From Macrostomum lignano (taxonomy: Eukaryota), in NCBI GenBank assembly GCA_002269645.1, contig NIVC01000212.1, forward strand, positions 496,001 to 560,000: a DNA stretch of 64,000 nucleotides, in the 5' to 3' direction. A model generated the notes under the pieces. It ran no database searches, was not told the DNA's origin, and saw only the letters and a list, made by a program, of their open reading frames with translations. The position numbers and the translations under genes are program-made. Below, one piece after another: positions 10,169 to 22,163 of the stretch. How positions within the stretch are numbered: the stretch's first letter is position 1; each line of letters opens with the position of its first letter.

Positions 10169-10576
10169 TTAGTATAGGTAGATAGGGATCGTTAACAGTA
10201 TAAATCTATGTACGTTGGCGATTCGCTCCAACTCTGTGCTCCCATTCGATACACTAAACTCCTTGAACATGTACGCCCAAAAGTTACTGATCAGAGCCAC
10301 ATCCGCATCATGCTTGTCAACGTTAGCACGAGCCGCATCCGCACCACCCTTTGTCTTGAATTGAAATGTCATATGGAAGCCGCTCTTAAGACTGTGCACA
10401 CTAACCAAAGACGAACATCCATTGTATGTGAATGTCAGCGTTTGACCTGGACCCAAATTAGTTTCATTCTGATTTTCCTGACTGGGAACTCTTACCTGAG
10501 TCGCTTTGATTGTGCTATCATCACTCAAAATAGGCTTGTTAATTTTGTAGAAAACTGGTGTCAGTGGGTCGTTCAT
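10169..10576 (-). pseudogene. N-terminal fragment of a double-jelly-roll major capsid protein (truncated near 10210)
   Basis: DDSTIKATQVRVP...GQTLTFTY...S.F...F...ALISNFWAYMFKEFSVSNGSTELERI follows the Polinton MCP N-terminal pattern (D.SI..., NN...LF..I.Y.L.G.EIE). Recognised by eye only. Confidence 0.6.
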
Positions 10577-10606
10577 TTTTTAACTAAAAATAAAATAAAA
10601 TAAGAA

Positions 10607-11863
10607 ATGAAGCGAAAAAGTGCACAGCAGATATCTGAATTGGAGAAGCTAGCACAAGCAGAGAAACGAGTTACCGGACTAATCAACAAAGAACAACAAT
10701 CTTACAATGAATTCGTCCAAGCAGCCACCGAATTTCACAAACCCGGATACACAGAAGCGAAGAAAAACCTCGACACTGTGAAGGAAGCAGTTGATGATAT
10801 TCAAGAGAGCCACTTGCAAAACACATTGGGTAAAATCCCATCTTCACCAGGACAACCACAGGCTCAACAACCAGGACAACCAGAAGCACAACCGGTGCAG
10901 ATGAAAGTGACGGATAACTTTTTTGGCCCCGTATTGGATGATGGAAAATATATTTTTGGAATTAGCGCCTGGCGAAAAAATATTACCGGGGAACCGGCGG
11001 AATACAACATTGAAGTGACGAAGGAAACTATTTCAATCAATAAAGGCGCAGAAACTAAACGAATCCCCTTCACTCAACGTTTACTCGACTACATGACTAA
11101 AAATCAGGAAAAAAGATCCGAGAAGCAGTTCGAAAATTACAAAGATATTGTTACCTTTGCTCTCGATAGGGACATAGATATGCTCAAGAACAACGGTGTT
11201 TTGAAAATTTTACATGAAAACGGGATTGTCTTGAACAATTTTAAAAAATACAAATACTTTAAACAATGGTTTGGTTTGCCGGATCAAGAAGAGGTCATAA
11301 GACAACAAACACAACAACCACCACAACAACCACAACCACATCAGCAGCAACCACAGCAGCAACCACAACAGCAACAACCACAACAACCACAACAACAGCA
11401 ACCACAGCAACAGCAACCACAGCAACAGCAACAACCACAGAAACCTCCGTCTCCACAGCAACAAAAAACCCAGGTTGAACAAGTACTTGATCAACTTGAC
11501 ACTGTAGACCCGATTCTTGTTTCGCAGTACAAAGATAGAAACCCTGATACTTGGTGACAATTAGAGCAGCTCTCCCCAGAACGAATGAAGCGAATCAATG
11601 ACAGAGTATTCACACCTAGGCTACAGCAACCCTCACCAGGAACATCCTTCTCTGACCAATCATTCGAATCACCACCAAGCTCTTCCGGAAAAGGCATGCC
11701 TGAAGTCTACAAGCGGCTAGTTGTTCTCCTAGGTGCAGCAAAGACCGGAATGAAAGATGAGAATAGAAAAGAGTTCGTTCATATTCTCAATAAAATGCTT
11801 GAGAGAAAATACATCGATCAGAGGGCGAGAGAGCTTCTGCTTTCACGTTTTAACAAAAAATAA
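10607..11863 (+). pseudogene. Polinton protein with a Q/P-rich tract. ORFs 10607-11557 and 11585-11863 are one frame split by TGA at 11555
   Basis: Same frame (offset 978 nt). The C-terminus KRLVVLLGAAKTG...EFVHILNKM...I resembles a Polinton-conserved RL.LL..S..AGN...E...I..L helical tail. Confidence 0.6.
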
Positions 11864-11879
11864 TTTATTTCAAGTAAAA

Positions 11880-12266
11880 ATGCCACTTATTTTCGAAAAA
11901 GACATTGACAAATACTATGACAAAGAGGAACTTAATCTCATTAAACGCGGATCTGGACTTTTCCCTGCAGGCCACTATCCAAGAAAAGAACGCTCTGGGA
12001 ATGGCCTTGCCGATTTGATCGCTCAGGGGGCCAAGATTTTTAAGGTCATTGGAGAGAACAAAGAGAACATCAAGAACGTTGTCGAAGCGGCCGGCAGTGT
12101 AGCCACAACAGCCAAAAAGATAAAGGATACTGTAACACCTAAACAAGAGATTCAGCCGCTGGCCCCGCTGGCTCCACTGGCCCCAAATCCAGACAGTGTG
12201 GACCCTGCAGTCTATGAGAAGATGAGAGCTAGCATTAAAAAAGGAAGTGGTTTCAAATTTGACTAA
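11880..12266 (+). CDS. Small basic putative virion core/cement protein with GxG motifs and an amphipathic helix
   Basis: AAAAATG start at 11880; KRGSGL, RSGNGLADLIAQGAKIFKVI, KKGSGF. Confidence 0.6.
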   Translation: MPLIFEKDIDKYYDKEELNLIKRGSGLFPAGHYPRKERSGNGLADLIAQGAKIFKVIGENKENIKNVVEAAGSVATTAKKIKDTVTPKQEIQPLAPLAPLAPNPDSVDPAVYEKMRASIKKGSGFKFD

Positions 12267-12395
12267 AGGGTACTTTCCGAGGGTAAAAGACTAGTCCCAA
12301 AATGACACATCCAAGTCCCAAAATGACACATCTAAGTCCCAAAATGACACATCTTCTAAATGATTTATTATTTGATTTTTTTCATCATAGAAAAA

Positions 12396-13196
12396 ATGGA
12401 CTATTCAAACGACTTCAATCCTCACTGGACGCGTAATCAGATTAAGTTTTCTCATCACGAGTCAATCCCAAGTCACTTCAGATGCATTGTTGTTGGTTCA
12501 TCCGGTTCAGGTAAAACATTCAGAGTCTTTAACATGCTTCTTAGACCTGGCTTTATCGACTATGACACTCTGCACATCTACTCTCCCACACTGTATCAAG
12601 ATGAGTATAAACTGCTGATTTCTGGATTGCAAAACAAACTGAACAAAGAGGACATTATTCAATGTTTTAATAACCAACAAAACCTTCCCAGTAACCCAGA
12701 AATTGTTACTTCTGAATATGCAAAGCACCTCAAAGACAATGAAAAATGGCAGAACATCAAAGTGTTCACCTATGGAGATCCGCAGGCTGATCCAAAGACC
12801 AAACTTCTACCCCAACCAGATGAGCTAGAAAAGGGGAGAAAGCATTTGATCGTCTTTGATGATTGTATGACAGGCCCACAGAAGCAGATAGAAAACTATT
12901 TTACAAGAGGGCAACATAACAATTGTAATGTAATTTACATTGCACAGAACTGGTTCGAGCTCCCAAACAAAACAATTCGTGGGAACTGCAATCTGATTCT
13001 CCTGTTTCCAACCATTCCACAGGACAGGCTAAAAAGATTTTACAATAAGGTCATTGCGCCTGCCTATTTTATAAATCTAACAAAAAACTCAAACAGAAAG
13101 ATTTCACAAGAGGAATTTGTTAACCTCTGCTTCGAAAAGTGGAACCAACCCTATCAGTTTGTCATGATCAACAAGGAAAAAAAGAACTGTAATTAA
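12396..13196 (+). CDS. A32/FtsK-like DNA packaging ATPase
   Basis: Walker A CIVVGSSGSGKT; Walker B LIVFDD; FTRG(Q)HNNCNVIYIAQ...IRGNCN. ATG with A-run at 12396. Confidence 0.92.
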   Translation: MDYSNDFNPHWTRNQIKFSHHESIPSHFRCIVVGSSGSGKTFRVFNMLLRPGFIDYDTLHIYSPTLYQDEYKLLISGLQNKLNKEDIIQCFNNQQNLPSNPEIVTSEYAKHLKDNEKWQNIKVFTYGDPQADPKTKLLPQPDELEKGRKHLIVFDDCMTGPQKQIENYFTRGQHNNCNVIYIAQNWFELPNKTIRGNCNLILLFPTIPQDRLKRFYNKVIAPAYFINLTKNSNRKISQEEFVNLCFEKWNQPYQFVMINKEKKNCN

Positions 13197-20565: not shown

Positions 20566-20595
20566 TTTTTAAAAAAGAAAATTTTAAATAAAATA

Positions 20596-21051
20596 ATGTA
20601 GCGCTCTGGTGGTAAAAAAGATTCACATGGACTGATAGAAAAGCTTCCTCATCCAAACAAAGGCTGGACAGTTCCGGGGTACAAATATTGCGGGCCTTTG
20701 AATCCACTTGAAATACAGTTAGATAAAAACAATAATCCAAATCCTGGGCATGAGCCTGTGAACGAGCTAGACTCTGTCTGCATGTGGCACGACGTTAAAT
20801 ATAGAGATTTTCCAGAGGAGAAGAATCGCTGGGACAAAGAAATGCTTAGGAGATTAGACAATATGGGGACTTCAAGCGGATTTCGTGAGTCGATTGCTAG
20901 GAAATTAGTCAAGGCGGTTATTTTTGTTAAGACAAAGTTGGGGTTGGGAATTGACGGCTGTTTTGAAGAAGGGGTGGGTTTTTTATTGCACGCGCCAAGT
21001 AAAGAACTAGGAAGACTGCTGAATGAGCTGGGGGTTGAGAGAGCAGAATGA
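20596..21051 (+). pseudogene. Parvovirus-VP1u-like phospholipase A2 (PLA2X)
   Basis: ATG-TAG at 20596, then in frame LIEKLPHPNKGWTVPGYKYCGPLN (Ca loop)...PVNELDSVCMWHDVKY (HDxxY catalytic)...KTKLGLG. Confidence 0.85.
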
Positions 21052-21395
21052 TTCAAGCAAGAAAATTCAGCTGGATTGGGCGGGTGTTTGGGAGAAGAGA
21101 GAACCGGGAGGGGGGTTGTATTGCGCGCGCCAAATAGAGACTCCGTACATCGACAGTGCATTTCCCAGTATTTGAGGTGGTTTTCCGACAGTTTTCCGAC
21201 AGTTTTCCGACAGTTTTTGTTGAGCAAAAAAAATCCGACAGTTTGTCGGATATTTGTCGCAAACGAAAACTCATTATCTACTAATAGTATTCCTAGCATA
21301 TAGTACTCCTATATAGTACTCCTTATAGTAGTGCGTTTGATTTCAACGGTGAAGAGTTCGTATTGACGTTGATCATTGAGAGAATGTGAGAAAAA

Positions 21396-21632
21396 TTACA
21401 ACTGCCTTATAACTTCAGCAAAGTTATAATAGCTGTCAAAATCGTTAATGACTACTCCGTGTTTTTCAAACCAGTGAGATTTAAGTGCTTGATTAATATT
21501 AGGGACATTGATATCTACGCCGGGCCAATATTTTCTCATGTATTCGCTGCATTCAAGTTTGCATCGGTACTTACTCTTGTAATTAGGCTCGTGCGCTTTG
21601 TAATAAGAACCTGGAGAGACAACTGGAAACAT
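21396..21632 (-). CDS. Small hypothetical viral protein (78 aa)
   Basis: Same AATAAAAAATG start context as the other element genes; aromatic-rich non-repetitive ORF. Confidence 0.5.
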   Translation of the reverse strand: MFPVVSPGSYYKAHEPNYKSKYRCKLECSEYMRKYWPGVDINVPNINQALKSHWFEKHGVVINDFDSYYNFAEVIRQL

Positions 21633-21797
21633 TTTTTATTGAGTATTTAATTTTTTCAAAGGGTAAGGACCCTGCGCTGATGATTTAAAGTCTTAAGGAT
21701 CTGGTTTCACCGCTTTGGATTGAATGTGGGGAGAAGAATGCAGATTATTTTCTGATTGTTTCGAAGATGCTATGGGTGGATGTCAGTCTCAGTGAGT

Positions 21798-22163
21798 ATA
21801 ACAGGTGTTAGTGGACACCTGTTATGCTCTGATTCTGTCAGGGATAATATGGATGGATTTAATGGGATTATGTTCGAAGTTCTCAGAGCAAGTGCGACCC
21901 CCCTTTTTTCAAGATTCTGTCAGGGATAATGTGGATGGATTTAATGGGATTATGGAGGACGTTTTGTGAGCGAGTGCGACCCCCCTTTTTTCTGATTCTG
22001 TCAGGGATAATATGGATGGATTTAGGTGGATTATGGAGGAGGTTTTTTGAGCGAGTGCGACCCCCCTTTTTTCTGATTCTGTCAGGGATAATATGGATGG
22101 ATTTAGGTTGATTATGGAGGAGGTAAAAAATTTTGTCCCAGAAGCCCCCTCATGCCTTCTACT
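21798..22163. repeat. Right terminal region of the Polinton: 11-bp hairpin, ~3.6 x 81-bp repeats and terminal ...CTTCTACT
   Basis: Hairpin ATAACAGGTGT-tagtgg-ACACCTGTTAT at 21798-21825; repeat units start at 21831, 21913, 21994, 22075. Confidence 0.8.

Follow-up and report, generated by a model that had tools for sequence, protein, structure and literature searches.

A very probable decayed Polinton/Maverick copy and its large, recently expanded family in the genome of Macrostomum lignano

The virions of animal Polintons have mostly been deduced from genes, from selection in one case (PMC8097293) and from free-ended contigs in another (PMC8502044). The closest described systems are the vertebrate Mavericks, which reach up to about 280 copies in a few genomes (PMC8097293), the adintoviruses, for which an integrase chromodomain is distinctive (PMC11071296), and the nematode Polintons with the polymerases pPolB1/pPolB2 (10.1101/2023.08.22.554363). 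For flatworms, Orthopolintovirales insertions are mentioned (10.1101/2025.04.19.649669). The DNA analyzed here is a stretch of 64,000 nucleotides from Macrostomum lignano (assembly GCA_002269645.1, contig NIVC01000212.1, positions 496,001 to 560,000, forward strand), referred to as the window; positions given without a contig are those of the window. The segment 10214–22163 is very probably, taken jointly with the history proposed below, a decayed and left-truncated Polinton/Maverick copy of a large, recently expanded family. In titles and abstract starts of the literature on Polinton/Maverick elements in flatworms and planarians a description of this family was not found; Repbase and subscription journals, which lay outside the search, may name it.

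Similarity to sibling copies spans 10214 to 22163 and sets both edges of the element. The original prediction had placed the start at 10170, and positions 10170–10212 proved to belong to an unrelated repeat. The segment holds 12 packed, intron-free genes in plus- and minus-strand blocks (GC 38–41%), and the gene list first given for this copy was correct. Pox_A32, Peptidase_C5, rve, Phospholip_A2_4 and Adeno_PX were found above the Pfam cut-off and Endonuclease_7 slightly below it; the frames thus match Polinton profiles, and the predicted Polinton identity stood. NCBIfam and PHROGs contributed no more than endonuclease VII, a weak polymerase match, transposase-type integrase matches and a terminase-type ATPase match. 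Of the features that characterize Polintons/Mavericks, a single-jelly-roll minor capsid protein (penton) has only a candidate gene, in siblings, whereas the following were found: AG...CT terminal inverted repeats, a 6-bp target duplication (in siblings), a protein-primed polymerase B, an rve integrase (PF00665), an A32-like ATPase (PF04665), an adenain-like protease (PF00770) and a double-jelly-roll capsid. Siblings have two terminal repeats; the window copy has one only, of ~830 bp (about 21337–22163).

Judged against the natural open frames of the siblings, 8 of the 12 genes of the window copy are broken. The core, integrase and phospholipase A2 (PLA2) genes carry one stop each, and the hairpin-protein, protease and pX-like genes are frameshifted. 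The polymerase gene has a stop, a frameshift and a deletion of ~300 bp that took the catalytic YxDTDS segment, which a sibling keeps. The penton-like gene is gone, as are two thirds of the capsid gene. The amphipathic protein, the ATPase, the coiled-coil protein and a frame in the terminal repeat are open. Because of the eight broken genes, the lost catalytic motif and the deleted left end, the window copy is considered dead, incapable of replicating or integrating by itself. The copy is thus inactive, and the weight of the case rests on the youth, size and testability of the family.

A 25-nt motif of the element terminus occurs 533 times (266 + 267) in the 764-Mb assembly and its reversed control 0 times, which excludes chance. 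The assembly therefore holds about 270 element equivalents, a number inflated by redundant contigs (C276, C1652 and C3945, for example, are one locus). Of 355 candidates for the capsid N-terminus 150 were scored, and 149 further matches at 95–99% identity resulted; by hand count about 107 of these have a frame of at least 428 amino acids (aa). The ATPase gave 139 of 139 scored matches in the genome. For the sibling sample, DNA around ~35 copies was used; 20 came from the upper part of the capsid match list, and the remainder were chosen by similarity of the terminal repeat or the polymerase. The genome search returned whole siblings with both terminal repeats, as had been anticipated; whole copies measure ~15.5–16.5 kb, longer ones hold other insertions and shorter ones internal deletions. 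A 6-bp target duplication was present in 17/17 stretches showing both ends (16/16 loci); in the window copy the left junction is deleted. Within a single copy, the terminal repeats match each other to 97.9% or more in 9 of 16 cases (range 84.5–99.5%), and from this closeness many insertions are taken to be young. Variants of the core, amphipathic-protein, ATPase and coiled-coil genes are found in mixed combinations between copies, a pattern that points to recombination or gene conversion.

Vertebrate Mavericks resemble this family in their terminal inverted repeats, 6-bp duplications and intronless polymerase, integrase, ATPase, protease and capsid genes, and also in that copies are mostly degraded and capsid genes are under purifying selection (PMC8097293). 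The outer end is AGTAGA here and (AG)3 or (AGT)2 in vertebrate Mavericks, and the PLA2, pX-like and coiled-coil genes, the terminal-repeat frame and a variable cargo slot are present here but not in the vertebrate elements as that source describes them (PMC8097293). The present family is also young, with capsid frames open in 24/29 copies examined; in the vertebrate genomes rich in copies, all of them appeared to be defective (PMC8097293). Nematode Polintons likewise integrated recently, at the level of strains, exchange genes between elements and have a polymerase interrupted by a nuclease domain; in the present family, by contrast, a fusogen gene was not seen, the insert matches endonuclease VII and the copy number is far higher (10.1101/2023.08.22.554363).

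Two contigs carry the host flanks without the element. On C312 the right flank is present and the element absent, the site lying directly behind a lectin-like gene; C1185 is collinear with window positions 1474–10212 (99% over 6.5 kb) and likewise lacks the element. Because these two homologous loci have the flanks alone, the window copy is judged to be integrated in the host genome, beside the lectin cluster as had been claimed. Both contigs have about 26–27 kb of extra host DNA ahead of the lectin cluster. From the comparison of the two loci, both the order of events and the size of the loss can be proposed: the element would have inserted, and a deletion would then have taken ~27 kb of the host, one lectin-like gene among it, and also the left 2.6 kb of the element, with its left repeat, its penton-like gene and the larger part of its capsid gene. 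The left module of the element left no trace in 9 fetched stretches of C1185/C312 host DNA, and the lost left end, together with the duplication it should carry, was looked for elsewhere in the genome and not found. The family would thus rearrange its host, the window insertion bordering on a ~27-kb deletion in which a lectin-like gene was lost.

The left flank (9558–10212) belongs to an unrelated repeat with 14-mer arms, of which the deletion spared one half; at other loci the repeat is intact. This repeat is young and common (40/40 scored matches at 93–100%, of 210 candidates) and was inserted in a decayed long interspersed nuclear element (LINE) at about 7000–9557. The right flank (22164–30368, plus strand) is host DNA with tandem PAN and C-type-lectin-like genes. 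The lectin-like genes lie at 23254–23700 (internally deleted), 26353–26582 and 29415–30368 (whole), and have many paralogs on other contigs. The last of them had been described as spliced; it is in fact a single unbroken 317-aa frame with a weak PAN match and a C-type lectin match (E 6e-5).

Contamination or an assembly chimera would be a further way to explain the block, and one of negligible probability. It is in keeping with a left junction that has neither terminal repeat nor target duplication and across which a read-derived contig was not found. Both flanks are, however, collinear with the two element-free contigs, ends of sibling copies, with target duplications, are found by the hundred on host contigs, and the family is present in four sequencing runs from four studies; a contaminant unconnected to host flanks, which had been named as the outcome that would overturn the prediction, was not what was observed. 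At the right junction, read-derived contigs of runs X1 and X2 match 22139–22382 without difference, with 25 nt on the element side, and were not counted as bridging under the rule of at least 31 nt on that side.

The order of genes in a whole element is terminal repeat, penton-like gene, capsid, core, amphipathic protein, ATPase, coiled coil, hairpin protein, protease, polymerase, pX-like gene, integrase, PLA2, variable cargo and terminal repeat. What the window copy retains of the major capsid (double-jelly-roll) gene are its first 121 codons (10214–10576, minus strand), 99% identical to a sibling frame, the remainder being deleted; the frame has 428 aa in siblings. The assignment draws further on a sibling model that matches double-jelly-roll capsids and on a weak PF21738 match. 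The model was built from a sibling copy and is of low confidence (predicted local distance difference test, pLDDT, 54). Among 48,161 solved chains, the 8 that rank highest against it are all capsid or scaffold proteins (best fold match with Z 10.1, root mean square deviation 6.9 and 303 aligned), and double-jelly-roll capsid or scaffold proteins occupied most top rows from a viral structure library. PF21738 was matched in 9/9 close capsid homologs. The sibling capsid is thus predicted to fold like a double jelly roll.

The capsid relatives at 70–77% and 42–45% identity are unnamed environmental sequences, and the next ones stand at 27% or less; an informative name was attached to 0/10 of those looked up. 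With the capsid profile, relatives were found in 0/170 pattern matches of viral contigs and in 0/210 of metagenome contigs. An uncatalogued capsid lineage is therefore supported, since all relatives above 27% identity are unnamed, and to this extent the claim of a new lineage stood; it failed for the polymerase, which is predicted to be of the ordinary animal-Polinton type. The candidate penton-like gene (287 aa) adjoins the capsid gene in siblings and scored 0.98 in the Atlas search against unnamed viral clusters; its single-sequence model (pLDDT 34) was too poor for a fold search.

To the right of the capsid fragment lies a plus-strand gene (10607–11863) with a Gln-rich tract and an in-frame stop at 11555–11557, of ~409 aa in siblings. 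It had no family match in profile searches (Pfam, NCBIfam/PHROGs), and we infer that its product is a core protein. The amphipathic protein (11880–12266, plus strand; 128 aa) is open, with GxG(L/F) motifs and a hydrophobic moment of 1.9; by hydropathy and position it is putatively Cupiennin-like, a matching profile not having been found. A 21-bp tandem array follows (12293–12354, plus strand), the unit number of which differs among copies. The packaging ATPase (12396–13196, plus strand) is open and of A32/FtsK type, with PF04665 above the cut-off and Walker A and B motifs. The coiled-coil protein (13214–14032, plus strand; 272 aa), also open, gave only generic coiled-coil matches and a top Atlas score of 0.79, which is a lead only; a fibre or spike is a guess. 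The hydrophobic-hairpin protein (14123–14862, plus strand) has a frameshift near 14570, being in two frames when compared with a sibling, and a hydropathy peak of 1.89; it is putatively PW/GasderminX-like, again by hydropathy and position, and here too a matching profile was not found.

The minus-strand block begins with the adenain-type maturation protease (14867–15266; PF00770 above the cut-off), frameshifted close to its start. The protein-primed DNA polymerase B (15377–18930, minus strand) is in three pieces with an endonuclease VII-like insert; its stop is at 18256–18258, its frameshift near 16720 and the deletion of the YxDTDS segment near 15825. The protein with an adenovirus pX (mu)-like segment (19053–19514, minus strand; PF05829, E 2e-7) has two frame changes and no match in a sequence search of the PDB. 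The rve integrase (19531–20565, minus strand) has its in-frame stop near the start. On the plus strand, the parvovirus-type PLA2 (20596–21051; PF08398, E 2e-13; YCGP and HD motifs) has its stop directly after the start codon and, by Pfam, no pX segment of its own. The right terminal inverted repeat (21337–22163) contains 81-bp tandem units at 21828–22124, and its outer end reads 5′-AGTAGA on the minus strand. A 78-aa frame within it (21396–21632, minus strand) is found at both ends in most siblings examined and is open in 28/31 copies; a family match was absent in Pfam, NCBIfam and PHROGs searches.

The C-terminal piece of the polymerase matched 5611/8000 scored candidates, the best at 41–49% identity. 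The named relatives are few (corals, anemones, a crinoid, an oyster and a wasp). PF03175 was passed by 2/3 relatives scanned and not matched by the window pieces, an absence that fits a Beta-like (group I) polymerase. The middle piece had no match in a PDB sequence search. At the N-terminus, Cys and His motifs are seen by eye where an OTU-like domain would be expected, without a profile or PDB match. The layout described for such polymerases is terminal-protein, vOTU, exonuclease and palm domains (PMC11071308).

Beta adintoviruses are alike in their divergent polymerase without a direct PF03175 match, rve integrase, FtsK-type ATPase, adenain, double-jelly-roll capsid, pX-like segment and membrane-active accessory genes, for which the present family has candidates (PMC8502044, PMC11071296). 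They differ in that the capsid of the present family has no named relative among the close matches, and in the integrase, which has a chromodomain in adintoviruses and none here (PMC11071296). Only rve was found in the integrase at E up to 0.1, and the frame ends at ~345 aa in a sibling too. For want of this domain the element is best filed as a Polinton and not as a formal adintovirus, although it would work like one. Alpha virion modules typically carry PLA2, and Beta ones Cupiennin and GasderminX (PMC8502044); candidates for all three are present here, with PLA2 beside Beta-looking genes. The set of entry genes had been called unusually rich, and this is new only in part: PLA2X, pX-like, Cupiennin and GasderminX genes, as well as mixing of Alpha and Beta modules, are already described for adintoviruses (PMC8502044).

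The ratio of nonsynonymous to synonymous substitution rates (dN/dS) was pooled from pairwise comparisons of copies with open frames only, using pairs with dS above 0.05. It was low for the ATPase (0.04, 20 copies), capsid (0.085, 24) and penton-like gene (0.10, 22), and intermediate for the core (0.14), protease (0.16, 16 copies), integrase (0.18, 12) and amphipathic protein (0.19). Higher values were obtained for PLA2 (0.21), the pX-like gene (0.24), the terminal-repeat frame (0.39), the hairpin protein (0.41) and the coiled coil (0.43). Frames were open among siblings in 24/29 copies for the capsid, 22/29 for the penton-like gene, 20/28 for the ATPase, 16/30 for the protease and 12/24 for the integrase. 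The capsid, penton-like and ATPase genes are therefore judged from these ratios to be under purifying selection, as expected if spread needs virions.

Since these virion genes are constrained, which is the argument made for fish Mavericks in PMC8097293, we lean towards a family that spread at least partly through particles. From what is known of such elements, the element would be excised or copied out as linear DNA, and the protein-primed polymerase would copy this form starting at its ends. The ATPase would package the DNA into the double-jelly-roll capsid, which the protease would mature. Cell entry would be aided by PLA2 and the membrane-active proteins, and the integrase would re-insert the element. 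Several points weigh against spread by particles. Broken copies were excluded from dN/dS, pairs are non-independent, the polymerase was left out and a few very divergent pairs weigh heavily. By a rough count, a break-free polymerase is present in 0/19 copies covering that gene. The constraint could reflect selection on free-living ancestors before invasion, the capsid model is of low confidence and the penton identity of the candidate penton-like gene is unproven. The evidence comprises neither particles nor free linear ends nor transcripts; RNA data sets with the family were not listed in a look-up, a result that is uninformative on expression.

The same data were weighed under intracellular multiplication as a self-synthesizing transposon, in which the conservation of the capsid would be apparent only, the product of several recent viral founders and a short time. 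We regard this, the main rival, as rather doubtful. It agrees with the higher dN/dS of several genes among near-identical pairs (dS at most 0.02), for example 0.92 for the protease (14 pairs), and with evidence that does not include particles; capsid-only and internally deleted copies also bear target duplications, so defective DNA can integrate. Yet the median dS of the capsid is 0.072 and its dN 0.007 (276 pairs), the ATPase stays at 0.12 among 17 close pairs (close pairs being too few for most genes), and alleles are shuffled between copies.

Dependence on a helper, with packaging or replication confined to hosts infected by a large DNA virus, is distinctly improbable. Such dependence is reported for Polinton-like viruses of entomopoxviruses and algae (PMC11296320, 10.1101/2025.10.09.676808). 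The capsid and penton-like genes are far from those of named animal Polintons and their relatives are environmental, and the cargo slot is hypervariable, which speaks for such dependence; the element nevertheless encodes its own polymerase, protease, ATPase and integrase, and the polymerase is 41–49% identical to relatives that include those of the animals named above.

Spread through particles, the reading preferred here, has a stronger form, which as a whole is unlikely: the family would be a live virus of its host, with particles made from some copies, co-infecting genomes that swap structural modules and the cargo slot, and palindromes that are integrated copy-back defective genomes. If so, its capsid lineage and its combination of PLA2 with Beta-type entry genes would define a branch of its own among animal polintoviruses, and the family would be a tractable case for seeing Polinton particles in an animal. 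With its few hundred young insertions, its constrained capsid genes and its fossil defective genomes, the family is a strong place to seek natural particles and free linear DNA.

The breaks in siblings are mostly unshared deletions of 1–2 bases, and stops are rare; many of them may be assembly errors. Retention of the capsid by the host, with capsid genes decaying more slowly than replication genes, was considered and rejected. In copies chosen by features other than the capsid the difference became much smaller, and most breaks resemble assembly indels.

Two independent loci, C633:134497–147606 and C276:289398–300645 (with duplicates C1652 and C3945), carry palindromic siblings flanked on either side by a left end. 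Their arms of ~4.8 kb are 99.3–99.9% identical, the 6-bp target duplication is intact, and they have neither an integrase nor a complete polymerase. The arms of both end in or beside the 21-bp array. These siblings fit copy-back genomes from free replication, or repair after integration. Among the matches listed in a literature search on palindromic, inverted-duplication or non-autonomous Polintons, nothing on palindromic Polintons was found. On C1098 (L055:130–5200), two element ends with complementary 6-bp flanks lie inside the 21-bp array of another copy, which suggests a nested insertion followed by an inversion. Terminus motifs facing each other 640–870 bp apart form miniature two-ended derivatives at C32:1150965–1151833, C124:22982–23697 and C289:58541–59180. 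Same-direction terminal repeats 9.06 kb apart were seen at C1684:18805–28375 and C2806:3206–12778, as a tandem arrangement or a duplicated locus.

The cargo slot between PLA2 and the right repeat (21051–21337 in the window) is short in the window copy and in 6/22 siblings. In the other 16 it holds about seven sequence groups of 1.2–2.5 kb, some distantly related at the protein level, with frames of 90–270 aa (examples are L024:5006–6892, L037:1332–3206 and L013:4189–6329). None of the 11 cargo frames scanned (0/11) reached the Pfam cut-off.

The remainder of the window contains further repeats and host exons. In a young LINE at 55898–58750, reverse transcriptase and RNase H share an open frame of 950 aa. 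An 858-aa frame at 59316–62288, without a Pfam match, continues in frame past a stop and is transposase-like by eye. Long satellites of 16-mer and 20-mer units and a fold-back repeat containing TAGGGT telomere-like units occupy 1–1822, 27010–28523, 32363–33007 and 24080–24700. Host exons of a tetraspanin (37468–39193), a rhodopsin-type G protein-coupled receptor (51677–52090) and a BTB-domain protein (4542–4928) were also recognized.

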